Under the pieces are notes generated by a model. It did not search any database and had not been told where the DNA came from. It saw only the letters and a list, made by a program, of their open reading frames with translations. From sequence record SRR2962707_2549: a stretch of 64,000 nucleotides of DNA. One strand, given 5' to 3'. Made by a program: the position numbers and the translations under genes. Each line of letters begins with the position of its first letter. Within the stretch, counting starts at the first letter, position 1. Shown here one piece after another: positions 1 to 13,303 of this stretch.

Positions 1-5
1 TTAAC

Positions 6-101
6 CTAGGTCACGTCAGACGACAATGGTTTTGCCATAGCCGTAATTTTTTCGAGTTTTTCGCGCTTAGTCGCAATGGGTTTTTCGTAGGTCTTTTTCA
101 T
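6..101 (-). CDS. Putative RiPP precursor peptide 1 (31 aa, MKKTYEKPIATKREKLEKITA-MAKPLSSDVT)
   Basis: Manually translated; absent from the ORF track. ATG at 99-101, TAG at 6-8, GGAG Shine-Dalgarno at 108-111. YxxP motif and Thr at leader position -2, as in lasso-type leaders. Paralog at 258-371; RRE and B2 peptidase nearby. Confidence 0.85.
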   Translation of the reverse strand: MKKTYEKPIATKREKLEKITAMAKPLSSDVT

Positions 102-371
102 CAAAGTCTCCGCAATATGCATAAATAATATATTCTTCTTTTATGTCGGCAAAAATAGGCTTTTAAATTACTGCAGGCCGAGCAGGTATCTATTTCTCAA
201 ATAACACTTTTTCATCATGATAGCGCTTTGATTATAAAGCACTGTTCGTGACAAATGTTAACTGTTGCCAATATCTGGCTTTCTAGATGTTGGTTCTTTG
301 ATTTGCTGTGCCGTTATTTTTTCTAGCTTTTCGCGCTTAGTCGCAGCGGCTTTTCCGTATGTCTTTTTCAA
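42..371. repeat. Diverged direct repeat of the leader-coding DNA (42-101 vs 312-371)
   Basis: The 18-nt string TTTTCGCGCTTAGTCGCA is identical at 58-75 and 328-345; flanking similarity is confined to the leader codons. Confidence 0.9.
258..371 (-). CDS. Putative RiPP precursor peptide 2 (37 aa, MKKTYGKAAATKREKLEKITA-QQIKEPTSRKPDIGNS)
   Basis: Manually translated. TTG start at 369-371, TAA at 258-260, GGAGG SD at 377-381. Leader is identical to precursor 1 at 18/21 residues, with synonymous codon differences; the core is unrelated. Confidence 0.82.
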   Translation of the reverse strand: MKKTYGKAAATKREKLEKITAQQIKEPTSRKPDIGNS

Positions 372-527
372 TTGAGCCTCCATTGCATCTACATTTCTAA
401 AAAAAGCTAGATTTTCTGGGGCAAAGTGTCAATGTGATTGACGCGGGGTCACCATGCAACTGATAGTGCTGCACAATTAATTCCATTTCGATTAAATTCG
501 CACCTAACGCTTTTCAAAGAAAATTTT

Positions 528-1967
528 ATGCACATTCCGCTATTTGAAAACTTTCCCACAAGTTCGCAGCTTCACAATGTGCGAACTAATGAAAGCTATG
601 ATCATTCATCGCTTTGTGCTGCGGTTAAAGAACTTGTTAAATCACGATTTATTGCGACAATAATTCCGGGAGAAACCATCGTCATCGGCCTTTCTGATCC
701 ATGCGCTGTGCTCATAAAACTGTTCGCAAGTTGGGCAAATGGAAACAAGGTTGTTTTAGTCAATCCTGGCTTAAAGCCTATCGAGCAGGAGACCGTTGTT
801 AAACACACCGGCGCCACCCATTGGTTTGGGGATTATTCCGATGACCTTGAGATAGAGCTTTCTAAAAATCGTAAAACAACGCCCGCAGCGTGTCAGCCAA
901 CCGCCCTTAAATTGGACGATCCAGCCCTTGTTCTTATGACGTCTGGAACGACAGGAACACCGAAGGGAATTGTTCACACACTAAGGACACTAAAGACGAG
1001 ACTTTCTCTCAATCTTATTTATCTGAAATCCGAAGTCTTGGAAAATACGCTCTGTGTGCTGCCCCTATTTTTTGGCCACGGCCTTATCGGCAATTGTTTA
1101 ACGCCATTAGCAGCAGGCCAAAAAGTGTATTTGTGGCCAACACCAACGATAAATGAAATATCTAATTTAGGGTGTATTTTAGACGACTATAGAATTACAT
1201 TTATGAGTTCTGTTCCAACATTTTGGAAACTCGCGCTTAGATTTGATCCACCTTCAAAACCTTGTTTAGCGCGCGTCAGCATTGGCTCCGCACCACTTTC
1301 TGTTGCCCATTGGGCGGCGGTAAAAGACTGGACTGGATGCAACGCAATTTTTAACATGTTTGGCATGACAGAAACAGCAAACTGGATCGGTGGCGGTAAC
1401 CTTGAAAACGCTGACGGACGCGATGGCTATGTTGGTCCTATATGGGGCGGCCGGTACGCTGTGAGACTGGAAGATGGAACTATAGGCTTTTCTGGACGCG
1501 GCGAAGTGCTGGTTGATTCTCCAAGCAATATGGTTGGCTATTTGAACGCAGAAGCGCAGACCAATGATGCGATGCAGGGAGAATGGTTTAGAACGGGCGA
1601 TATTGGCGAACTAAGCGAAGCTGGCGAGCTGGTTCTGGTCGGTCGCAGCAAAACTGAGATTAACCGCGGCGGGATAAAGATTTTGGCCGAAGAAATTGAT
1701 ATGATGCTTGAACGGCATCCAGCGATTGCCGAGGCCTGCGCATTTGGTGTGCCTGACGAAGTGTCCGGTGAAGTTGTTGCGGCTGCTGTCATTTTGAAAG
1801 CCGAAATGGAGTTAAGCCATGGTGAGTTGCGCAAATGGTGCCTTACTCAAGTTAGAAATGAAGCGGTTCCCCAAAACATTTACTTTGTCGCTTCCATCCC
1901 AAAAAATGACCGAGGAAAAATCGTCAGAGCCGATGTTATGCGCGCGGTTTCGGGCCACGTGGTATGA
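528..1967 (+). CDS. Class I adenylate-forming enzyme (acyl-CoA/acyl-ACP ligase-like)
   Basis: Motifs MTSGTTGTPKG, FGMTE, FRTGD, RSK..INRGG and the terminal PKNDRGK lysine. ATG at 528 preferred over TTG at 438. Confidence 0.9.
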   Translation: MHIPLFENFPTSSQLHNVRTNESYDHSSLCAAVKELVKSRFIATIIPGETIVIGLSDPCAVLIKLFASWANGNKVVLVNPGLKPIEQETVVKHTGATHWFGDYSDDLEIELSKNRKTTPAACQPTALKLDDPALVLMTSGTTGTPKGIVHTLRTLKTRLSLNLIYLKSEVLENTLCVLPLFFGHGLIGNCLTPLAAGQKVYLWPTPTINEISNLGCILDDYRITFMSSVPTFWKLALRFDPPSKPCLARVSIGSAPLSVAHWAAVKDWTGCNAIFNMFGMTETANWIGGGNLENADGRDGYVGPIWGGRYAVRLEDGTIGFSGRGEVLVDSPSNMVGYLNAEAQTNDAMQGEWFRTGDIGELSEAGELVLVGRSKTEINRGGIKILAEEIDMMLERHPAIAEACAFGVPDEVSGEVVAAAVILKAEMELSHGELRKWCLTQVRNEAVPQNIYFVASIPKNDRGKIVRADVMRAVSGHVV

Positions 1968-2557
1968 TAAAAGCAATGTCAAAAAGTGATTTGTCTAATC
2001 CCATAATTACGCAGCGCTTTGAACTGGTTCCGATTGGGTGTTGGGAATTAGCAAAGCGGATCCAAAGTTCGCAAGGCGATCCCGAGCTTCTAGCATCACT
2101 GTATCATCGCACGCGCACGCAAAGCTTTTTCGCAATTCTGCTAAAGACGAAACGCAGCAAAATTCCCAAGCGGCTCTACCATAAAATTATCGTCCGCTCG
2201 ACTGGTAAGGTCATTGGTTTTCACACCCTGCAATTTAAGAAATACAAAAGTGCCAACCTCGCTGTTGTCATTCATGATCGATCTTGGTGGGGCAAAGGCG
2301 CTGTTGTTGAGATTAGAAAAATGCTCATTCCGGCTTATCAAGAAGCGATGGGCGTGACCCAGTTTTGCGCGGATGTGAACAGTCGAAATTTTGCGTCTAT
2401 CCTCAACTATAAAAAGCTTGGGTTTGAAAATGTCGGTGTAAGGTACTCTTGCGTCTACGACGAGGTCCGCCAACTGCCTGCCGATTATTACAGTTTTTCT
2501 TTGCGCGGCAAAAAGCTTGAAGAACAGATAGAAGCTTGGAAAAATCATGGCGCATGA
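1964..2557 (+). CDS. RimJ/RimL-type GNAT acyltransferase
   Basis: WWGKG acyl-CoA-binding loop and N..S...YKKLGF motif; ATGA-coupled to the ligase. Confidence 0.8.
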   Translation: MIKAMSKSDLSNPIITQRFELVPIGCWELAKRIQSSQGDPELLASLYHRTRTQSFFAILLKTKRSKIPKRLYHKIIVRSTGKVIGFHTLQFKKYKSANLAVVIHDRSWWGKGAVVEIRKMLIPAYQEAMGVTQFCADVNSRNFASILNYKKLGFENVGVRYSCVYDEVRQLPADYYSFSLRGKKLEEQIEAWKNHGA

Positions 2558-2780
2558 ACAGGCAATATCTTTGGTTTGCAAATTAACCGGCTACGATCGT
2601 TCAGAAGTTTCCGATCATGATGATGCCCAAAGCCTCGAACTCTGGGACAGCATTGCGCATGTCAATATAATCATGACATTAGAGGAGCTAATCAATCGTC
2701 CACTATCAACGGCCGAGATTATCAATATGAGCTCAATAGAAGGAATTCAAAATCTTCTAGGCAGCGTTCAACGAGCTTAG
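2547..2780 (+). CDS. Stand-alone acyl/peptidyl carrier protein
   Basis: 77 aa, acidic, with a WDSIAHVNII phosphopantetheine-Ser motif; overlaps the GNAT stop. Confidence 0.85.
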   Translation: MAHEQAISLVCKLTGYDRSEVSDHDDAQSLELWDSIAHVNIIMTLEELINRPLSTAEIINMSSIEGIQNLLGSVQRA

Positions 2781-2789
2781 GTTTATAGA

Positions 2790-3779
2790 TTGCAACGATT
2801 GAGTAAAAAGCAGCGCCTTGTCCTGTGCAGCCTGGCCGATCCAGCCAGAGCCGTAGGCGATATTGACCTGCTATCAGTATTTTCTTTGGACGACCTTATT
2901 TACGTAGCGGAAATGCACGGCATTTCTTCAATCATCCACCGAAAACTAAAAGAGTATAATGCACAAAACGCCGCTGGACTTGAAAAGGAAATAAGCGCGG
3001 GAAATGAAACTTTGCGGTTTCAAACAGCGGCAATGCTTGATTTGGATTTTCACGGCAAGAAAATCGGCCAAGCGCTTTCAAATGCAAATATAGAACACCG
3101 CTATGTAAAAGGTCTGACCTTCGCGAACGATCTTTATGATAACCCTAATGACCGCCCTTACACGGATATCGATATTGTTGTGCCCCTTGAGCAACTTGCG
3201 CAAGCAACCAAGATTGCAATTGACCTCAATTATACCCAATCAATAAAAGCGGAACTGGATGGTTCAGAGCGCAATCAAGAAATTAAACTGCTTTGGCCAG
3301 GTGCCCGCCACATACTGATTGAACTGCATGGAAATCTCGTTCACATGCAAAAATTGCGGCAAGTTAAAAAGATTGGCTTCCCTGAACTGTCTATGGCCTA
3401 TGATCGGCAAACGCCTTTTGTCGGGCATTTTGTCATCGCTGTGGCGCACTCCTCTCTGGGCCACAAGTTCCACAATCTTAAACTGATGGTAGACTGTCTG
3501 CAGGCAATGAGACGTCTAAACGAAGAAGATTTGCCCTATCTCGCTCAGATGGTTAGCCAATTTAATCTGCGCTATGAAGTGGCGACATGCCTTGAGCTCT
3601 GCCAATCAATTTTTGGCGGTAAGGAAATTTCAGCAAAAGCAGCTTTGATGAAACGCGAATTGTCGCTGCCTTTTGCATCGCCCTTTGTGAGAGCCGTTGA
3701 TGTGCTTCAGGCGCCGCTTGAAAATAACTCGGTATCACGGCTACGAAGATATTTTTTCCGCTTATCTCAAATGGTATGA
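2790..3779 (+). CDS. Nucleotidyltransferase family protein (type found in lasso-peptide clusters)
   Basis: KG...LY....RPYTDIDIVV (DxD) and IELH motifs; TTG start. Confidence 0.85.
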   Translation: MQRLSKKQRLVLCSLADPARAVGDIDLLSVFSLDDLIYVAEMHGISSIIHRKLKEYNAQNAAGLEKEISAGNETLRFQTAAMLDLDFHGKKIGQALSNANIEHRYVKGLTFANDLYDNPNDRPYTDIDIVVPLEQLAQATKIAIDLNYTQSIKAELDGSERNQEIKLLWPGARHILIELHGNLVHMQKLRQVKKIGFPELSMAYDRQTPFVGHFVIAVAHSSLGHKFHNLKLMVDCLQAMRRLNEEDLPYLAQMVSQFNLRYEVATCLELCQSIFGGKEISAKAALMKRELSLPFASPFVRAVDVLQAPLENNSVSRLRRYFFRLSQMV

Positions 3780-4768
3780 CCAAGCGCGGCTGAAATCATC
3801 TTGGCCATCTCAATGGGTGAGCCGTTTAGATTGACACGATAGCAAGGGGTGCAGCGGATCAACGCGCTATACGTATCAAGCTTGTTTTCATCATAAGGCC
3901 TCAGCGCCGAGCCGATGGTCGACATATTATCTTCCAGCAGATCATGCAGCCCATCAAACGCGCTAACTTTAACAACACTGCACGGCTTTGATAGATCGCG
4001 GGAAAGAGAAACCACCGCACTGATGGGAAGGGTTTTTTCGTCGATAATGATTTTCGCTTCAATCAACGAAGCACGGTTTAAAAACTGTTCGCCATTCAGA
4101 TCAAAGTCCTTTGATCCAAAATGATCACCTAGAAAGGGAAGCGCCTCAACCGTATTACGATGCACTTTCGGTGCGCGCGGCACTCCCCACGCGGTCGCAA
4201 CTGCAGCGTTTTGCCCACAGCGGATCACGGTCGCATCATCGCTGATAATGGCGTACCCGACTGCACCTAAAGCAAACGATGTCGTGGTTTTGCCGGTGCC
4301 GCTTTCAGCATGCAGCAAAATCGCAGAAGATTTGTCTGGCGTTGCCAAGCATGCGGCATGAACAAAGCTTTGTTCCGCTGACGTGATCGTATGTTCCAGC
4401 GCAATGATGGATAATTCGTCAAGGCCCTTTAAATGCGCTGTGGTTTTTGCCGACGAAATTTTTGCCGATCCATCCTTAAAAAGTTCGACTTTTAGATCAT
4501 CTCCAATTGTCACGACTTGCACACGGTCGTCGACTTGGTAGAACTGCAAGGCCTGACCGCCGACGGATATCTTTTCGTCAAGCAATTTACCTACCGGCGC
4601 ATTAAAATTTTGAAATTCGCAAATTTCAATCTTGAAAACCGCGCCCGAACTTGGCGCTGTTTCAACGCGCCGTGGACCGAGCAGCCAATCAAACATTTTG
4701 AGCGCAGGTTCAGGGCCACAAACACATAGGTTGGCGCCGTCAATGTCAAAATATAGTGAGGACATCAT
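3767..4768 (-). CDS. HPr-kinase-like serine kinase (lasso-cluster type)
   Basis: HAA, Walker A ESGTGKTT and ISDD motifs; coupled to the B2 gene. Confidence 0.85.
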   Translation of the reverse strand: MMSSLYFDIDGANLCVCGPEPALKMFDWLLGPRRVETAPSSGAVFKIEICEFQNFNAPVGKLLDEKISVGGQALQFYQVDDRVQVVTIGDDLKVELFKDGSAKISSAKTTAHLKGLDELSIIALEHTITSAEQSFVHAACLATPDKSSAILLHAESGTGKTTTSFALGAVGYAIISDDATVIRCGQNAAVATAWGVPRAPKVHRNTVEALPFLGDHFGSKDFDLNGEQFLNRASLIEAKIIIDEKTLPISAVVSLSRDLSKPCSVVKVSAFDGLHDLLEDNMSTIGSALRPYDENKLDTYSALIRCTPCYRVNLNGSPIEMAKMISAALGHTI

Positions 4769-5193
4769 GGTTTTGTCTCCTCCGGCACCGAATACACAAC
4801 GACCATATTTTCCAATATGTCGTTGATTAAAGCGCGGCCGTTAAGTTCAACCCAGCAATGTGCGCTTAGCTTCTGGGAATTGACTGAGCTGCGATCAATG
4901 CCGAATTTTAAAATTGGATTGTAGCCCGCCTTGCGCAAAAATCGCATGCCCAAAAGGCCTTGTCGCAGGCACTGCCGATCACGCATAAACCATGGGCGCT
5001 TGGTGGCGCGCATCACCTGCTTGGCAATTCGTGTTGGTTCCACGCCACAAAAATCTTTATCCGCATCAACTTCTATATATTTCAGCGTAGCAGCTAAATC
5101 TCGATTACGCATCATGAGGGGCAGCAATCGCGCCGAAAGCTTAATCTCAAACTTAAGGCGAAAACGCGTCCTGAGTTTTAACGTAACCACCAA
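4765..5193 (-). CDS. Lasso-type B2 leader peptidase (transglutaminase-like Cys protease)
   Basis: 142 aa; CLRQ Cys, AHCWVE His and a downstream Asp; adjacent to the RRE gene. Confidence 0.9.
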   Translation of the reverse strand: MVVTLKLRTRFRLKFEIKLSARLLPLMMRNRDLAATLKYIEVDADKDFCGVEPTRIAKQVMRATKRPWFMRDRQCLRQGLLGMRFLRKAGYNPILKFGIDRSSVNSQKLSAHCWVELNGRALINDILENMVVVYSVPEETKP

Positions 5194-5472
5194 TTAGTCT
5201 TTCGATGGAATGAGAACAGCTTCGTCGATCAAAAAATCCACCAGCTCGTTGAGGTCTTTCTCAAGCACCGCTTTTTCCACATCGAACTCTTCCAAAATAT
5301 TTGCAACAGCCGCGTCAAACGACAAGCCTTTTTGAACGTTCTTGATGAACGCTGATCCGCTTTGATTGGTTGAATAAAGTTGGCCGCTTTCGGCCATAAG
5401 AATAATGCCTTCATCACCCAAATCACGGAACGATGCAGATGGGTTGAGCGATAGGTTTTCTTTTGAAGACAT
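5194..5472 (-). CDS. PqqD-family RiPP recognition element (B1)
   Basis: 92 aa from ATG 5472; LYSTNQSG...I and EEFDVEKAVLEKDLNELVDFLIDEAVL match the PqqD/RRE pattern. Confidence 0.88.
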   Translation of the reverse strand: MSSKENLSLNPSASFRDLGDEGIILMAESGQLYSTNQSGSAFIKNVQKGLSFDAAVANILEEFDVEKAVLEKDLNELVDFLIDEAVLIPSKD

Positions 5473-5783
5473 AATTGAAGAACATCCTGTTAATGCGCCA
5501 AGATGTATTTGAAAATGACCGAAGGTCAACCCACCGCGCAATGCTTCGCATGCCGAAAGTGTATACATCGCGCTATGTTACCTTGACGGTTCATGATGAG
5601 TATTTGGATTTTGTCTGTTCTCAGCCTGTGTTTTTTCTAGCACACCTTGGCTAGTCGCGTAAGCTTACCTATGGTAATCAACGAGTATGATAGATCGCGC
5701 TTGTGCGGAATTTGCCACCTGATATGATTATTTCTACGGGGACTTTTCTAGCAAGCAAAATTTAAGAACTTAGGAAATTAAAC

Positions 5784-6782
5784 ATGAAGTGTTTCTGCAC
5801 AAATGTATTGAGAATGTGCGCAATCTCGCTTGTTTTTGGCCTCGCATTTACAGTCCCATCCATATCGGCAGAAACGATTATATTAAAAGTTGGGTACTCC
5901 GCTGGCGGTGGCTATGATCAAGGCGCGCGCCTTATCGCATCGCAACTGGGGAGATACTTGCCCGGAAATCCTTCCGTGGTGGTTCAAAATGTTCCCGGCG
6001 CTGGCAGCCTAAAACTGACCAAATTAATGATCAATTCTGAACCCAAAGACGGAACGGTTTTAGCGATGGTGAATGCGTCCGTCGCCACGGCAACAGTCAC
6101 GACACCGGACGTCGCGAATTTTGATGCCAGCAATTTTAATTGGGTCGGCAGTATAACGGATGCGTCCGCAATTTGTTATGTTGATAAAAGAATTGCGAAC
6201 ACTGATTTAGATGGACTTTTGAACGGTGGTCTTATTCTAGGTGCGAGTGGGAAAACCAGCACGACCTATATTTTCGCGGCACTTGTAAAGAACCTCTTTG
6301 GTGCGAATTTTAAAATTGTCACTGGTTTTGAAGGCATTAACGAAATAAACGCAGCAATCCTAAGAGGCGAAATACAAGGTGCATGCGGCCCGTCTTCCAC
6401 TTCCTTTGAGAGCGGAGCGGCCCAAGACAGCGTTAATGTTGTTGGTTATTGGGCATTGAACCCTGACCCGAAGTTTCCCAATATCACTAACTTCTATGAC
6501 CAAATAGAAGATCAAAAGGACAAGGCTGCTGCAAAGCTCTATGTCGGTGTGCGAACAATTAATCAGCCAATCTTTTTACCACCAGGCACACCACCCGAAA
6601 AAGTGGAGGAGATGCGTAAAGCCTACTCAACAATGGTTGCAGACCCAGCATTTAAGGAAGCTGCGATTAAAAACAATTTTGAGATTGGCCCACACTCCGG
6701 CCAAGAGGTGACTGATCTCATGAAGGAATTGATTTCAGTTAGTTCAGAAATCATAGAGCGTGCTGGAGAAATAAGCCGCTGA
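5784..6782 (+). CDS. Tripartite tricarboxylate transporter substrate-binding protein (TctC/Bug family)
   Basis: Signal peptide, GYSAGGGYD..AR and NVPGAGS motifs. Confidence 0.85.
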   Translation: MKCFCTNVLRMCAISLVFGLAFTVPSISAETIILKVGYSAGGGYDQGARLIASQLGRYLPGNPSVVVQNVPGAGSLKLTKLMINSEPKDGTVLAMVNASVATATVTTPDVANFDASNFNWVGSITDASAICYVDKRIANTDLDGLLNGGLILGASGKTSTTYIFAALVKNLFGANFKIVTGFEGINEINAAILRGEIQGACGPSSTSFESGAAQDSVNVVGYWALNPDPKFPNITNFYDQIEDQKDKAAAKLYVGVRTINQPIFLPPGTPPEKVEEMRKAYSTMVADPAFKEAAIKNNFEIGPHSGQEVTDLMKELISVSSEIIERAGEISR

Positions 6783-6819
6783 ATTGTTGATTATATTCTA
6801 GGGCGAAACTCTATTCAGC

Positions 6820-8763
6820 ATGGACATAATTTTAACTGCCTTTGAAAGTGTGATGCAAGCCGATGTTCTTTTGATGCTGTTTTGCGGCGTTACCTTAGGA
6901 CTATTCATCGGTGTGATACCAGGCCTTGGCGGCTTGTTCGGCATGGCTTTGCTGGTTCCGCTTACTTATGACATGGAGCCGATTGCGGCCTTTGCATTAT
7001 TACTCGGCATGGGTTCAGTCATAACAACATCTGACACTATTCCAGCCGTGCTTATTGGCGTGCCAGGCAGCGTTGGCGCCATTGCAACGGTTGAGGACGG
7101 ATTCCCGCTTGCAAAGCAAAATCAAGCACCGCGCGCTTTAGGCGCTGCCTATAGCGCATCGCTTATTGGCGGAATATTTGGCGCTTTGGTGCTCGCAGTG
7201 TCGATACCGATCATGCAGCCATTAGTGCTATTGTTGAAAACCCCAGATTTTCTAGCAATTTCGCTGTCCGGTCTCTTTCTCGTGTCAATCTTAAGCGGAC
7301 AACATCTCTTCAAGGGTTTGTCTGCTGCGACATTGGGCGTTTTGCTTTCACTGATCGGCATAGATGGACAAACCGCCACCGAGCGCTTCACCTTTGGCGA
7401 ACTCTATTTTTGGGACGGGCTACCGCTTGCTGTTGTATTCCTCGGCATTTTTGGTTTGCCAGCGTTAATGGATTTGATGGCGCAAAAAGACACGGTAAAT
7501 TCCTCAGCCAAAATGTCCACATCAGCTGTGCTAGAAGGTATTCGCGATACGCTGCGTGAATGGCGGCTTGTGCTATCTTGTAGCTCTGTAGGCTCGGTGC
7601 TCGGCGCAATTCCCGGCATTGGTTTGCCGGTCATTGAATGGGTTGCTTATGGTATTGGAAAGCGGCACCGCAAAGATGGACCGGAATTCGGTCAAGGTAA
7701 TATTCGCGGTGTGATCGCTCCGGAAAGCGCCAACAATGCCAAAGAGGGCGGCGCTCTTATTCCGACAATTGCAATTGGTCTTCCTGGTTCGGCGACGATG
7801 AGCATATTGCTTGGCGCCTTTATAATGCACGGGCTGGTGCCCGGTCCCAGTATGCTCACCGAAAACCTATCCATTACCTATTCGATGATCTTTTTCGTTG
7901 CTGCCGCGAACATACTTGGCGCGGTCATGTGTCTTGCGATGACAAATCAGTTGTCGAAGATAACAACAGTTCCATCTTCTATTATTGTTCCTATCGCCTT
8001 GGTCTTTATCACTCTTGGCGCATTTCAAAATGATGCAAGCTGGATTGATGGATTGGTTCTCGTCATTACCGGTCTGTTGGGCTTCTACATGAAGGAGAAT
8101 AATTGGCCACGGGCAGCGCTCGCTCTAGGTTTTGTTCTCGGCCCGACCATCGAACGCTATTTCTTCCTGTCTTATCAGATCGTAGGGACTGACGTATTGT
8201 TTCGCCCGACAATTATGTTCATCCTTTTTCTTGGCTGTGTGTTTTGCCTTAGGGCGCTGGCCAAATGGGCAAGAACAAGAACAGAAAACAAAACAAACAA
8301 CGCCTATGGCGTAAATGATTTTGTTGCTGCGATATTTTTATCGCTGGGTTCCATTTGGTGTCTTTGGCAAGTCTGGAATATGCCGCTTGGTGCCGCGCTT
8401 TTTCCCAAAATCGGGTCAGCACTACTTCTTGTGTTCACTCTTTTGATCGCTCTTAAATCCGCAAGTTCAGTATCGCGGATTAAGGGACCTATAGATAATC
8501 TGGCCGGTAACTTCCGGAACGCCCTTATTTTGCGTCAAAAGGAATTTCTGGTTCCTCTGGCGCCGATGATTTTTATTGGGTTGATCTATTTGATCGGCGT
8601 TGCTCCGGCGACCATTGCCTTTGTGGGGCTGATGATTGTTCAGGCAAATCGTGCCATGTGGCGACGCGCCGTTTGGTTTGCACTCGGCACAGCGGTTGTC
8701 GCATTTGTTGTTTTCAATGTTCTAATTGCAACGCCGTGGCCCAAGCCACTCATTGGATTGTAA
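6820..8763 (+). CDS. TTT large permease TctA with fused C-terminal TctB-like domain
   Basis: G.IPGLGG and APESANNAKEGGALIP motifs. 647 aa, with ~150 extra hydrophobic residues ending in P.P.G, as TctB does. Confidence 0.82.
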   Translation: MDIILTAFESVMQADVLLMLFCGVTLGLFIGVIPGLGGLFGMALLVPLTYDMEPIAAFALLLGMGSVITTSDTIPAVLIGVPGSVGAIATVEDGFPLAKQNQAPRALGAAYSASLIGGIFGALVLAVSIPIMQPLVLLLKTPDFLAISLSGLFLVSILSGQHLFKGLSAATLGVLLSLIGIDGQTATERFTFGELYFWDGLPLAVVFLGIFGLPALMDLMAQKDTVNSSAKMSTSAVLEGIRDTLREWRLVLSCSSVGSVLGAIPGIGLPVIEWVAYGIGKRHRKDGPEFGQGNIRGVIAPESANNAKEGGALIPTIAIGLPGSATMSILLGAFIMHGLVPGPSMLTENLSITYSMIFFVAAANILGAVMCLAMTNQLSKITTVPSSIIVPIALVFITLGAFQNDASWIDGLVLVITGLLGFYMKENNWPRAALALGFVLGPTIERYFFLSYQIVGTDVLFRPTIMFILFLGCVFCLRALAKWARTRTENKTNNAYGVNDFVAAIFLSLGSIWCLWQVWNMPLGAALFPKIGSALLLVFTLLIALKSASSVSRIKGPIDNLAGNFRNALILRQKEFLVPLAPMIFIGLIYLIGVAPATIAFVGLMIVQANRAMWRRAVWFALGTAVVAFVVFNVLIATPWPKPLIGL

Positions 8764-8794
8764 CGATAGTCCTGGGCGGGAATAGGAAGGTAAT

Positions 8795-10279
8795 CTACAA
8801 TAGAGATTGCAGTTTTTTTCGATCCAGCTTGCCATTCAAATTGTACGGCAAGCGCTCGACGACTTTGATAATTCTAGGGCGTCGGTCATGGGCGAGCATT
8901 TTCATACATAGCTCATGTAACGTGCGTTCATCACCATTTTTAGACACGATGACAGTTGCTATTTCCTGACCAAAGTCATCGTCATCAATACCGAATACTG
9001 CAACGTCGTCTATCATTGGGTGAGCGATTAGTATATTCTCTAACTCCTGCGGTGCGACATTGACGCCGCCGCGAACAATCATATCCCCTTCGCGTCCTGT
9101 GATTGTTAGAAAGCCGTCTTCGTCGATAAATCCGAAATCCCCCGGCGCTCCCCAATCATCACCCATACGTTCAGCATTACTAGCGGAATCGGGGTGCAAA
9201 ATCACTTTATCGGCCCGATATGGCGTGTAGACTTTGATGAGGCCGATTTGCGTTGGTCCAAGTGGCAACATAGACAACGGATCAACGATTTCAATTTTAA
9301 CGCCGCCAATAGCGGTGCCGGAAGTTGCAGGTTTCCTTAGCACATCTTCGCCCGATAAGAGACTGGTCGGCCCCGTAAGCGTCGACGAATACCCCATACA
9401 ATAGCCATTGCTTAAATATCGATAGGCATCTTGCTTATCTTCAATTGTCGCAGGTCCACCAATGCTGCGCAAAACCGTGAGTTCAGGAAAGAAAGGCTTA
9501 TCGCGCGGCCCAATTTCTTTGACCAGTTTTCTAACTATAGGGGGTGGGAAAGCGCAGGCCGATGGCCTCACTGACAACATGCTTTCGATTAGCTCACTCG
9601 TGCTAAATAAAGGTTTGCCAAAAATTACCAAATTTTCAAAAGCGAGGTAATTGAAAACCATTTGCCGCGTCGCAGAAAATGACATCGGCATAGGTGTAAA
9701 AAAGCGCCCCGTCGCAGAGGTTGTTTTGCTTCGTCGTGTTTTTATGCGCAATGCAATTTGGCGGTGTGATTGCGTATATGCTTTGGGAAACCCAGTTGTG
9801 CCTGATGATAGCGAAATAAAGGCTGGATACTGATCCAGTTCATCAGGTTTAGGGAACTCTCTTGAACCATCATCGACCCAATTTTTATCGCCGAGCCAAA
9901 TCAAACTTGGATAATTATCCACGCCGGCGGGGTGCCGGTTCTCGATAACTATTTTTGCCCCTGTTAACACACTAACAGCACTGCGCTGTGATGCAGGCGT
10001 TCTAAAATCAAGGATCACTGGCGTCGCACGTAAGTACCAACTGCCGATGACACAGCTTAGTACATCAACATGGTCGACGAGGCAGATAATCACGCAATCA
10101 CCGTTTTGAATACCTGATTTGGACATCATGCTTGCTGCGGATTGGGCGCGTTTTAGCAATTCGCTGCCGGTCATTTTTACTCCGTCAGCATCAATCACAA
10201 CCACTTCATCATGCCGCTTTTTCAAGCGTTCATATACAATAATTCCAAGCTGCGTTTGTGTTGTCGTATTTTCGCTCAT
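8795..10279 (-). CDS. Second class I adenylate-forming enzyme
   Basis: LSSGTTGFPK, PGD, GREGDMIVRGG and LPYNLNGKLDRK motifs; the YGxTE motif is degenerate (YSSTL). Confidence 0.88.
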   Translation of the reverse strand: MSENTTTQTQLGIIVYERLKKRHDEVVVIDADGVKMTGSELLKRAQSAASMMSKSGIQNGDCVIICLVDHVDVLSCVIGSWYLRATPVILDFRTPASQRSAVSVLTGAKIVIENRHPAGVDNYPSLIWLGDKNWVDDGSREFPKPDELDQYPAFISLSSGTTGFPKAYTQSHRQIALRIKTRRSKTTSATGRFFTPMPMSFSATRQMVFNYLAFENLVIFGKPLFSTSELIESMLSVRPSACAFPPPIVRKLVKEIGPRDKPFFPELTVLRSIGGPATIEDKQDAYRYLSNGYCMGYSSTLTGPTSLLSGEDVLRKPATSGTAIGGVKIEIVDPLSMLPLGPTQIGLIKVYTPYRADKVILHPDSASNAERMGDDWGAPGDFGFIDEDGFLTITGREGDMIVRGGVNVAPQELENILIAHPMIDDVAVFGIDDDDFGQEIATVIVSKNGDERTLHELCMKMLAHDRRPRIIKVVERLPYNLNGKLDRKKLQSLL

Positions 10280-11508: not shown

Positions 11509-12519
11509 ATGTTCAATTTTAAGTCTACACTAAACACAGTTGCGGCCATTGCCGCCTCGATATTTTTAACATTGCCGGCAAATGCGCAGGATGAAATCGA
11601 GATCGGTTACATGCCAATCTTGCCCGTGTCTCAGCTTTTTGTTGGGCTGGAAGAGGGCTACGTCGAAGATCTGGGCGTCAAAATAAAACTCACCGAATTC
11701 CAAAATGGCCCTGCGATGGTGCAGGCTCTTTTGGCAGGCCAGCTCGACGTTGCTAATGTTGGTATTGGTCCAGCCATGGTGGCGCGGGCGCGCGGCGCGG
11801 ATATTAAAGTGGTAGCTTCCAGCATTGTTGAGCAGATCAGCATGTTAGCACTGGGCGATTTGGCGCCATATTTTGAAAATGATGATGCTGCAACCGCATT
11901 CTCTCGCTTTTCTGCTGACAAAGGCCGCAAGGCTGTTATTTCGACATTCCCTGTCGGGTCTGTGCCAGAAACCGTGTTGCAATATTGGTTGCGCAATGTT
12001 TTGGAAATCGATCCATCAGAAGTTGAGATTATTTATCAGGGCGCAGCGCAAGTACAGCAAGCGCTGCTCACGGGTGCTGTTGATGGTGCCGCGATTTTGG
12101 AACCAGCGGTCACAATCGTCAAAAGCAAGAGCGACAAAGTGCGCGTTGTCGCGAAGGGCGCAGAAATGTTCCCACGCCAGCCCGGCGCCATTCTTGCTGT
12201 GCGTGAAGGGTTGATTGAAAACCATCCGGAAATTGTTGCCAAACTTGTGGAATCACACGAAAAAGCTACACAAATCCTGAACAATGACCCTGCAAAAGCA
12301 GCGATTGCTGTGCAGAAATTCGTCGGTGGTGGACGCTTACCTGTTGCGCTCATCGAAAAGGCAATTGAAGGCTCAAAAGGTTCATTCGTTGCAGACCCGA
12401 ATTTCATTTTAGAAGGCACTCAAACCATGCATGACTTCCAAGCTGAAATCGGCACTTTGAAGCAGAAAGTGGACATCAACACATTGTTTGATACCTCGTT
12501 TTATGATGCCTTGAAATAA
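11509..12519 (+). CDS. Sulfonate/nitrate-type ABC transporter substrate-binding protein
   Basis: Signal peptide, IGYMP and FQNGPAMVQALLAGQLD (SsuA/NrtA-like). Confidence 0.85.
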   Translation: MFNFKSTLNTVAAIAASIFLTLPANAQDEIEIGYMPILPVSQLFVGLEEGYVEDLGVKIKLTEFQNGPAMVQALLAGQLDVANVGIGPAMVARARGADIKVVASSIVEQISMLALGDLAPYFENDDAATAFSRFSADKGRKAVISTFPVGSVPETVLQYWLRNVLEIDPSEVEIIYQGAAQVQQALLTGAVDGAAILEPAVTIVKSKSDKVRVVAKGAEMFPRQPGAILAVREGLIENHPEIVAKLVESHEKATQILNNDPAKAAIAVQKFVGGGRLPVALIEKAIEGSKGSFVADPNFILEGTQTMHDFQAEIGTLKQKVDINTLFDTSFYDALK

Positions 12520-12523
12520 ATCT

Positions 12524-13303
12524 ATGGCCAGAATGAATTCAATCTCGTCGCTACGCCGGCCAGTCTTAGGACTGACTGGCGTCGTGCTGTTTATCGTCCT
12601 GTGGAAGCTTTCACATGATTTGGAATGGTTTCGCTCTGGCACTATGCCCGATCCATTTTTGGTGCCGTCTGCCTTTATGGACGAGCTGAGAACAAACCGT
12701 TTATTTCCTGCAATTGGCTCAAGTTTGATCCATTATGTGTGGGGCCTTGGCTTGGGCGCATTGCTGGGTGTGACCGTGGGCGCAAGCGCGGCCACCGTCA
12801 GGTTTTTGGACGATCTACATTCTATTTTGGCCCGCATTTTGCGTCCTATACCGCCACTAGCTTGGGTGATTTTTGCCATTGCTTGGTTCCAAGTCAGCCA
12901 TGCGGGCGCGGCGTTCGTGATTGCAATTGGCGTCTTTTGGGTGAATTATTTTGCGACCTACAGCGCGGTGCGCGATGTTGATCCGCGCTATTATGAGTTA
13001 GCGCGGGCATTCGGCCAAAGCTCTTATTTCACCCAGCTGTTTAAAGTGACATTCCCCGCAGCGGCCCCTGGCACATTGGCCGGATTGCGCACCGGCGTTG
13101 GTCAAGCATGGATGACTTTGATTGCAGCTGAGCTTCTCGGCGTGCCCGGCATGGGCCAAGAAATGAATGCTGCGGCTGGTGTGGGTGCTTATGAGGCCGT
13201 TGTGGTATATATGCTTGCAATCTCAGTGGTCTATGCGATCTCTGACTTGTTTTTTGGTGCAATTGAAAAGTGGATTTTGCGTTGGCGCCCATCATCTCAA
13301 TAA
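12524..13303 (+). CDS. ABC transporter permease (SsuC/TauC-like)
   Basis: LRPIPPLAW, EAA-like loop and WMTLIAAEL. Confidence 0.88.
   Translation: MARMNSISSLRRPVLGLTGVVLFIVLWKLSHDLEWFRSGTMPDPFLVPSAFMDELRTNRLFPAIGSSLIHYVWGLGLGALLGVTVGASAATVRFLDDLHSILARILRPIPPLAWVIFAIAWFQVSHAGAAFVIAIGVFWVNYFATYSAVRDVDPRYYELARAFGQSSYFTQLFKVTFPAAAPGTLAGLRTGVGQAWMTLIAAELLGVPGMGQEMNAAAGVGAYEAVVVYMLAISVVYAISDLFFGAIEKWILRWRPSSQ

Follow-up and report, generated by a model that had tools for sequence, protein, structure and literature searches.

Two tandem leader-core genes beside lasso-type maturation genes as probable precursors of linear, cyclase-independent peptides

The left edge of SRR2962707_2549, a DNA stretch of 64,000 nucleotides that was analysed over its full length and is called the window here, carries two small open reading frames (ORFs) in tandem, which have a leader in common and differ in their cores. 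We put the probability at about three in four that these are genuine precursor genes (A1 and A2) of a pathway for ribosomally made peptides with post-translational modifications (RiPPs) that is derived from lasso peptide biosynthesis, lacks a cyclase and yields linear peptides that are phosphorylated on Ser and probably acylated on Lys. The neighbouring genes include those for a PqqD-family RiPP recognition element (RRE; B1), a lasso-type leader peptidase (B2), an HprK-like kinase (K) and an NTP_transf_5 protein (N). What can be read directly are the ORFs with their family, the spacing of the leader residues, the syntenic gene set, the lack of a nearby cyclase and the coupling of the peptides to B2; the chemistry of the pathway is inferred throughout. 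The two genes and their Shine–Dalgarno (SD) sequences are the following.

6..101, minus strand: distal precursor gene of 31 aa, consisting of the 21-aa leader MKKTYEKPIATKREKLEKITA and the 10-aa core MAKPLSSDVT; ATG at 101, coding to 9, stop codon at 8..6.
108..111, minus strand: SD sequence GGAG of the distal gene, read from the sequence, with a 6-nt spacer to ATG 101.
258..371, minus strand: proximal precursor gene of 37 aa, consisting of the leader (M/L)KKTYGKAAATKREKLEKITA and the 16-aa core QQIKEPTSRKPDIGNS; TTG at 371, coding to 261, stop codon at 260..258.
377..381, minus strand: SD sequence GGAGG of the proximal gene, read from the sequence, with a 5-nt spacer to TTG 371.

An initial annotation of the window had described two unannotated tandem genes whose leader is constant and whose cores vary. 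Both ORFs are indeed found on the minus strand, each preceded by the SD sequence that had been assigned to it (GGAG at 111..108 and GGAGG at 381..377). Longer in-frame starts are present at ATG 122 for the distal and at ATG 383 for the proximal ORF, both without an SD sequence; the peptides of relatives always begin at MKK, and the TTG start recurs at the same position within the leader family. Upon re-alignment, the leaders are identical at 18 of 21 residues, which is the count given earlier, with both initiators taken as Met. The 21 leader codons show five synonymous and three non-synonymous differences, plus the ATG versus TTG start. For the part encoding ATKREKLEKITA, said to be conserved despite three synonymous changes, AAA/AAG can be added to that list, giving four synonymous and zero non-synonymous differences between the copies. 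After ...ITA the cores, of 10 and 16 aa, resemble each other in neither length nor sequence, again in agreement with the initial annotation. Beyond the distal stop codon only five bases are left before the window edge, and the array cannot be read further; to judge from relatives, another precursor copy, a Formyl_trans_N gene or a gene for a SIS-domain regulator would be expected there.

Neither window peptide is present in a collection of 15 billion proteins, whichever of three start choices is tried, which indicates that genome annotation overlooks such substrate genes. A search for homologous proteins with a 41-aa form of the proximal ORF returned zero candidates, a scan of ten family peptides against NCBIfam gave no model at cut-off and weak matches to lasso leader models only, and megablast of window positions 1-6000 against plasmids gave no match. 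Among the fragmentary contigs that four DNA runs provide over window positions 1-1500, the single listed difference within the ORFs is 268 C>T, which occurs in one contig and changes a core residue. In run X1, a contig spanning window positions 1-100 runs on with ten letters equal to window positions 371-380, as if the array existed there with one copy or in recombined form, or the assembler had collapsed the repeat. A 5.3-kb contig from run X4 matches the window at positions 286-322 only, i.e., the conserved leader-coding stretch, which points to another copy of the leader elsewhere in that sample. Between the two precursor genes, a 28-aa ORF at 168-254 (minus strand) contains MMKKCYLRNRYLLGLQ, and its ATGAAAAAG start corresponds to the leader's first codons. 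This ORF may be a decayed third precursor copy; the family profile described below scores it at an E-value of 6.6, which leaves the idea unsupported.

Searching relatives for the leader, as the initial annotation had proposed, recovered a large and conserved leader family. The scan, which covered one genome per species and used an alignment of the two peptides, yielded 377 pattern matches, 110 relatives confirmed by tblastn and 80 retained loci, nearly all of them from Mesorhizobium or other Hyphomicrobiales. Within the family loci, 97 distinct small ORFs were found, each with a start codon, a leader of the form MKKTYEKPxLxKRxKLSxVTA (72 aligned) and a core of 5-16 residues; tandem copies number from one to five, and RefSeq labels some of the Mesorhizobium homologues as 'putative RiPP precursor'. 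Across genomes of 45-67% GC, the family is kept at the protein level. A hidden Markov model (HMM) of the family, built without rows from the window or its closest loci, was compared with 2414 six-frame segments of the window. It picked out the two ORFs only, with E-values of 1.4e-12 (distal) and 3.5e-6 (proximal) against 0.8 for the next best segment, and the resemblance therefore exceeds chance.

The organization of the leaders is that of lasso precursors. Counted back from ...VTA/ITA, both window leaders have Tyr at -17 and Thr at -2, and position -14 holds Pro in the distal and Ala in the proximal one. For lasso precursors the rule is YxxPxL at -17 to -12 with Thr at -2 (PMC10368454); save for Ala at -12 in both leaders and at -14 in the proximal one, this spacing is followed. 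It predicts a cut after Thr-Ala, exactly where the likeness of the two window peptides ends, and the initial proposal that B1 and B2 together cleave after ...KITA would fit the Tyr-17/Pro-14/Thr-2 arrangement. Recognition of the leader by the RRE at 5194-5472 had been suggested as well. The complex predicted for B1 (92 aa) and the distal peptide scores 0.58 against 0.03 for the best control, with a contact agreement of at least 96% among runs and a predicted local distance difference test (pLDDT) value of at least 61 for the partner; in the calibration, 51 of 78 solved complexes attain the mark, as do 2 of 108 mismatched pairs, but the range up to 0.60 holds only 5 of the 78 solved complexes and all four passing mismatches out of 180. 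Because similar complexes of a lasso RRE and its leader have already been solved, the pass may reflect likeness to them, and the prediction lends weak support to leader recognition by B1.

The enzyme genes next to the precursors are arranged as follows.

438..1967, plus strand: AMP-binding acyl ligase (PF00501/PF13193), divergent from the precursors.
1964..2557, plus strand: GNAT acyltransferase of the Acetyltransf_3 type (PF13302, E 9.5e-9).
2547..2780, plus strand: small carrier protein of 77 aa, similar to acyl carrier proteins (ACPs), with a weak PP-binding match (E 0.0035) under the cut-off.
2790..3779, plus strand: NTP_transf_5 protein with a nucleotidyltransferase fold, N (PF14907, E 1.6e-20).
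3767..4768, minus strand: HprK-like P-loop kinase, K, with SGTGKTTT (Walker A) invariant in the alignment.
4765..5193, minus strand: lasso-type B2 leader peptidase, a transglutaminase-like Cys protease (NF033537 at 54.9 bits, cut-off 33; PF13471, Transglut_core3).
5194..5472, minus strand: PqqD-family RRE, B1 (PF05402); the ORF is open to 5568 and homologues begin at Met 5472.

The plus-strand genes converge on the minus-strand block of B1, B2 and kinase, and genes of the TctC/TctA uptake type adjoin B1. A PqqD-type RRE combined with a transglutaminase-like B2, the pair that characterizes lasso peptide loci, is thus present. In the B2 alignment, Cys75 and His112 are invariant and Asp125 is found in six of seven sequences. 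The kinase model has a pLDDT of 86.4 and a predicted template modelling score (pTM) of 0.84. Foldseek ranks phosphoenolpyruvate (PEP) carboxykinases first (TM ~0.55), and HPr kinase/phosphatase 1ko7 follows at rank 44; HPr kinase and PEP carboxykinase have a common P-loop fold. Using phmmer, no match to PDB sequences was obtained for either B2 or the kinase. The likeness of the ligase to its relatives starts near residue 31, so that its true start is probably ATG 528. It has orthologues that are 43-60% identical in eight other loci (L058, L072, L081-L083 and L088-L090), and its best NCBIfam matches are fatty-acid ligase models, all far under their cut-offs. The carrier protein has a W-D-S motif (Ser35) that is invariant in an alignment of nine homologues. 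The segment 8795-11288 (minus strand), 3 kb past B1 and with TctC and TctA/B genes in between, encodes another AMP-binding ligase (494 aa) along with a PP-binding/thioesterase protein (333 aa). The pair was considered as part of the cluster and rejected, as relatives do not conserve it; in L081, a second AMP-binding gene adjoins B1, and its product is ~31% alike to the window's second ligase over 195 residues.

The same gene set adjoins peptides of the leader family in seven other loci, i.e., L058 (three peptides), L072 (one), L081 (two), L082 (one intact), L088 (five in tandem), L089 (one) and L090 (two), of which L081 and L082 are metagenome contigs and L088, L089 and L090 come from three further genomes. 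Ligase, GNAT, NTP_transf_5 protein, kinase and B1 are encoded in all seven compared loci and B2 in six. The initial annotation had made its case depend on small ORFs being conserved beside B1/B2 homologues, and this is what six other loci display. The type is rare, as the GNAT occurs in 4 of the 401 genomes searched of the order, the search from which L088, L089 and L090 were obtained. A Formyl_trans_N gene lies downstream of the peptides in three of the seven loci (L058, L072 and L088); no further gene family is common to more than three of the seven, and neither a cyclase nor an exporter is among the genes they have in common. In L011 and L026, the Mesorhizobium cassette includes a gene for a Formyl_trans_N protein as well (~12021-12611), and L072 carries an extra NAD-dependent sugar epimerase/dehydratase and a second NTP_transf_5 gene at 6176-9403. 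These three kinds of genes hint at a sugar-type decoration. In L081, the first precursor (8138-8263, minus strand) begins MKTYEKPRIVKRGNIRHCTA..., and its counterpart in L082 (8089-8241, minus strand) is out of register (MKTVYGQPSN...) and looks like a frameshifted copy. The two cores of L090 are Gly-rich (NAGGTAPGGGPPKGGGG...).

In the genus Mesorhizobium, the peptides are coupled to B2 at the level of whole genomes. The peptide profile matches 44 of 61 Mesorhizobium genomes, with 1-25 matches each, a median of 8 and 353 in total, and B2 is found in 43, with one copy each. Both are present in 43 genomes and neither in 17; the peptide alone occurs in one genome, as a single match, and B2 alone in none (Fisher's test, 3e-14, uncorrected for relatedness). 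This coupling is not a matter of linkage. B1, B2, kinase and NTP_transf_5 genes lie within 10 kb at 10 of the 80 family loci, the remaining loci are situated among unrelated genes, and in complete chromosomes most peptides are megabases away from the cassette. Such a pattern across unlinked genes would be expected for substrates and their maturation enzymes. The largest number of matches, 25, was found in one Mesorhizobium genome (G037), and several genomes carry tandem runs of four to five copies within 1 kb (e.g., G056:C1 ~6,000,025-6,001,057), at a large distance from the only B2 gene. The Mesorhizobium cassette itself consists of peptide, B1, B2 and kinase genes with the NTP_transf_5 gene opposite, and is flanked by genes for Dak1, enzyme I of the phosphotransferase system (PTS) and acetyl-CoA synthetase (Acs). 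Two ORFs of 435 and 584 aa beside it, with 'unknown' products at first sight, were discarded as antisense shadows of the Dak1 and PTS enzyme I genes.

The cores vary widely, and two features recur in them. Statistics on cores outside the window refer to 93 distinct cores from other loci, after rows not starting with KK.Y, rows shorter than 24 residues and the loci L058 and L072 were left out. All 93 contain Ser or Thr; their median length is 9, and 67 have Ser at core position 5, mostly preceded by Pro. In the ligase/GNAT-type loci, 14 of 17 cores carry a K-x(2,3)-S/T motif, which occurs in one of the 93 other cores. This Lys before Ser/Thr is seen, for instance, in the window (MAKPLS and IKEPTS), in L058 and L088 (KPIS and KPVS) and in L081 and L082 (KLGYS). 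The combination of a GNAT in the cluster and a candidate acceptor residue (Lys or Orn) in the core, by which selidamide-like, GNAT-lipidated RiPPs are recognized, is thus present. Many Mesorhizobium cores have a pair of Cys residues framing the conserved Ser (VCTPSTCVD, IACPSTGCPVD, AICNSSNPCGF and QACPVSHCTVD; L004, L012, L015, L019, L029, L032, L035, L048 and L063), which suggests a small disulfide loop around a modified Ser. A different variant was found in Aquibium sp. (L049, 9692-10390), with four tandem precursors whose hydrophobic cores contain Trp (VPVTLIWVPVT, AKVTLIWVPLP). The conserved position is occupied by Thr, not Ser, in these cores, and the genes for kinase, B2 and the NTP_transf_5 protein adjoin.

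From these elements, the following pathway can be proposed. B1 would bind the leader through Tyr(-17)-x-x-Pro/Ala(-14) and present the substrate to the HprK-like kinase, which would phosphorylate Ser6/7 of MAKPLSSDVT and Thr7/Ser8 of QQIKEPTS. No modifying enzyme other than the kinase and the NTP_transf_5 protein recurs in every version of the locus, and the conserved core Ser is therefore the likely target of both. Precedents exist: BsfK, assisted by B1, phosphorylates Ser3 of its core (PMC10368454), and LppK attaches several phosphates to Ser3 of a linear peptide (PMC13381572). Subsequently, the NTP_transf_5 protein may add a further decoration to the phosphate, as the pseudomycoidin nucleotidyltransferase adds a hexose to phospho-Ser (PMC8498205). 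In the ligase/GNAT-type loci, the ligase would load a carboxylic acid onto the carrier protein, from which the GNAT would pass the acyl group to the conserved Lys that precedes Ser by three or four residues or to the new N-terminus. Lys10 is acetylated by the albusnodin GNAT (PMC8498205) and Lys is fatty-acylated by the selidamide GNATs (PMC8784127); in the present case, Lys is probably the acceptor, the sole ground being the correlation with K-x(2,3)-S/T. Finally, B2 would cleave after Thr(-2)-Ala(-1) and release short linear peptides of 10 and 16 residues that are not lassos.

Several other explanations have to be weighed against this pathway. The leader, B1, B2, K and N all occur in phosphorylated lasso clusters (PMC10368454, PMC8498205), the NCBIfam matches of the family peptides, albeit weak and sub-threshold, are to lasso leader models, and the DNA to the left of the window lies outside the sequence, so the two genes might be ordinary lasso precursors with a cyclase encoded shortly beyond the window edge or at another place in the genome. 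We regard this as very unlikely, because of both the enzymes and the cores. The eight window ORFs of at least 450 aa are all assigned to families other than that of the lasso cyclase, the syntenic loci compared conserve no gene resembling Asn synthase, and in six of them a cyclase is absent on either side of the cluster. The L072 genome likewise has no full match to Asn_synthase (PF00733), with two weak ones near 31 and 23 bits. As for the cores, a macrolactam requires a ring of 7-9 residues with a threaded tail, which neither core provides. The sole acidic residue of the 10-aa distal core is Asp8, and ring closure there would leave a tail of two residues only; the proximal core has Glu5 and Asp12 as its only acidic residues, and the first core residues are Met and Gln. 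On the evidence of their sequences, the window cores cannot form a lasso. The same is seen in the wider family, where Asp/Glu at 7-9 together with a length of at least 13, the minimal requirements for a lasso, is found in 1 of the 93 other cores. A cofactor-type peptide, like those of pyrroloquinoline quinone (PQQ) or mycofactocin, was rejected as well, since the cores are hypervariable and encoded in multiple copies.

Even less probable is that the ORFs are not translated at all and that their similarity reflects duplication of a DNA element, or a repeat with a regulatory role, in the ligase operon's divergent promoter region. The very small size of the ORFs and the absence of both peptides from the protein collection would agree with this, but the conserved 12 codons differ synonymously only, the SD sites are correctly spaced, frame and stop codon are kept while the cores vary, the family is conserved at the protein level over the above range of GC contents, and the ORFs co-occur with B2 in genomes. 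A somewhat more serious, though still unlikely, option is that the precursors are real and the main chemistry is another one, for example acylation of the new N-terminus by the ligase, carrier protein and GNAT to yield a lipopeptide, a phospho-Ser that is an intermediate to be eliminated or substituted, or a kinase with a non-peptide substrate. The RimJ/RimL (Acetyltransf_3) type of the GNAT, the formyltransferase-like gene after the peptides in three of seven loci and the sugar epimerase/dehydratase and second NTP_transf_5 gene of L072 are in line with this option, and the final product of the pathway in which LppK acts is likewise not established, according to the article text (PMC13381572). 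Opposed to it are the high variability of the first core residue in the ligase-type loci, where Lys and Ser are the conserved nucleophiles, and the two experimental precedents, cited above, for a kinase acting on Ser in related systems. Some observations also count against the linear phosphopeptide pathway that we prefer. At -12, where Leu is found in lasso leaders, both window leaders carry Ala, and in the proximal one Ala takes the place of Pro at -14; the latter is also seen in three of three L058 peptides and five of five L088 peptides, from which we conclude that the substitution is probably tolerated. In L090 (12900-13700), B1 is followed directly by the kinase, with no B2 in between, and three of the 17 ligase-type cores (L089 and L090) do not contain K-x(2,3)-S/T. 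Pfam yields no match for the kinase, whose NCBIfam matches, TIGR04352/04355, are far under the cut-offs; a GNAT of the RimJ/RimL type suits N-terminal acylation equally well; and LppN, the counterpart of the NTP_transf_5 protein, is described as having no effect in a heterologous host (PMC13381572). Besides, a conserved exporter is absent from the seven compared loci, and the co-occurrence count in Mesorhizobium ignores phylogeny.

The closest counterpart in the literature comes from Bacillota, where lppA-K-B-S-D-N clusters direct the synthesis of linear polyphosphorylated peptides (LPP; Popov et al., Nat Commun 2026; PMC13381572). Both the LPP clusters and the window family are lasso-derived without a macrolactam cyclase, and in both a cluster encodes one or several precursors that are conserved at the N-terminus and variable at the C-terminus (PMC13381572). 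The combination of an RRE, an HprK-like kinase and an NTP transferase without a cyclase, which delimits LPP, is found in the window family too. The LPP product is linear and polyphosphorylated on Ser3 (PMC13381572), and the window products would be linear as well. Several differences are apparent from the same article (PMC13381572). LPP clusters encode a signal peptidase of the SpI type (SipW-like), LppS, in contrast to the lasso B2 Cys protease of the window family; an LppS-type peptidase is not among the genes that the seven loci have in common, although no search was aimed at signal-peptidase families. They also encode an MsbA-like exporter, LppD, whereas no transporter is common to the seven loci. 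The LPP leader is YxxPxVLxHQxIxFETxxS compared to KKTYEKPxLxKRxKLSxVTA here, with YxxP alone in common, and the LPP core that was studied has 45 residues compared to 5-16 in the window family. Moreover, LPP are described as restricted to Bacillota, while the window family is alphaproteobacterial; the supplementary lists of biosynthetic gene clusters of that article, which lay outside the literature search, may include cases beyond Bacillota. The ligase, GNAT and carrier protein are extra in the window type relative to LPP.

Phosphorylated lasso clusters, i.e., those of paeninodin, pseudomycoidin and Bradymonas bsf, have the A, B1, B2, K and N genes and the spacing of Tyr-17, Pro-14 and residue -2 in common with the window, and their kinase takes the linear precursor as its substrate and is assisted by B1, as proposed here (PMC8498205, PMC10368454). 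They carry in addition a cyclase (C) and usually an exporter (D), both of which are lacking in the window family, and in their cores Gly comes first and Asp/Glu is found at 7-9, neither of which applies to the window cores (PMC8498205, PMC10368454). GNAT-acylated RiPPs, such as albusnodin, an acetyl-Lys lasso (PMC8498205), the products of IatT-type lasso GNATs (10.1101/2024.12.31.630886) and the selidamides (PMC8784127), are alike in combining a cluster GNAT with a conserved core Lys. No dedicated acyl ligase and carrier protein beside the GNAT are described in the texts cited (PMC8498205, PMC8784127, 10.1101/2024.12.31.630886), and the scaffolds are lassos or cyclic proteusin/Nif11 peptides, as opposed to the short linear phosphopeptides proposed here (PMC8498205, PMC8784127). 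A literature search, outside of which subscription journals and supplements fell, found no report of a cyclase-less system of the B2 type, of such RiPP precursors in Mesorhizobium or of the leader motif.

Linear phosphopeptides derived from lasso pathways without a cyclase were first described in 2026, in Bacillota only, with a different leader peptidase and, as the article text has it, a final product that is not established (PMC13381572). The present results would extend this idea in several directions: to an alphaproteobacterial family that has kept the B2 protease and has tiny cores; to Mesorhizobium, with many, mostly unlinked precursors and with peptides and B2 jointly present or absent in 60 of 61 genomes; and to the rare window sub-type (4 of 401 genomes), in which a conserved core Lys matches the presence of an acyl ligase, a carrier protein and a GNAT. 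At ~5.5 kb, with two natural substrates and seven enzymes, the window locus is a compact and testable system that is suited to asking what K and N make and whether a dedicated carrier protein can feed RiPP lipidation. It is a tentative and rather more doubtful proposal that the window represents an undescribed RiPP subclass, in which linear peptides of ~10-16 residues would receive a phosphate-based group on Ser and a carrier-delivered acyl group on a nearby Lys, via B1/B2 without a cyclase, and in which the wider family would combine one cassette with many substrates. If this is true, a single B1-B2-K-N cassette in Mesorhizobium would serve up to ~25 unlinked, hypervariable precursor genes per genome, which would indicate a diversified repertoire for signalling or competition in rhizobia.

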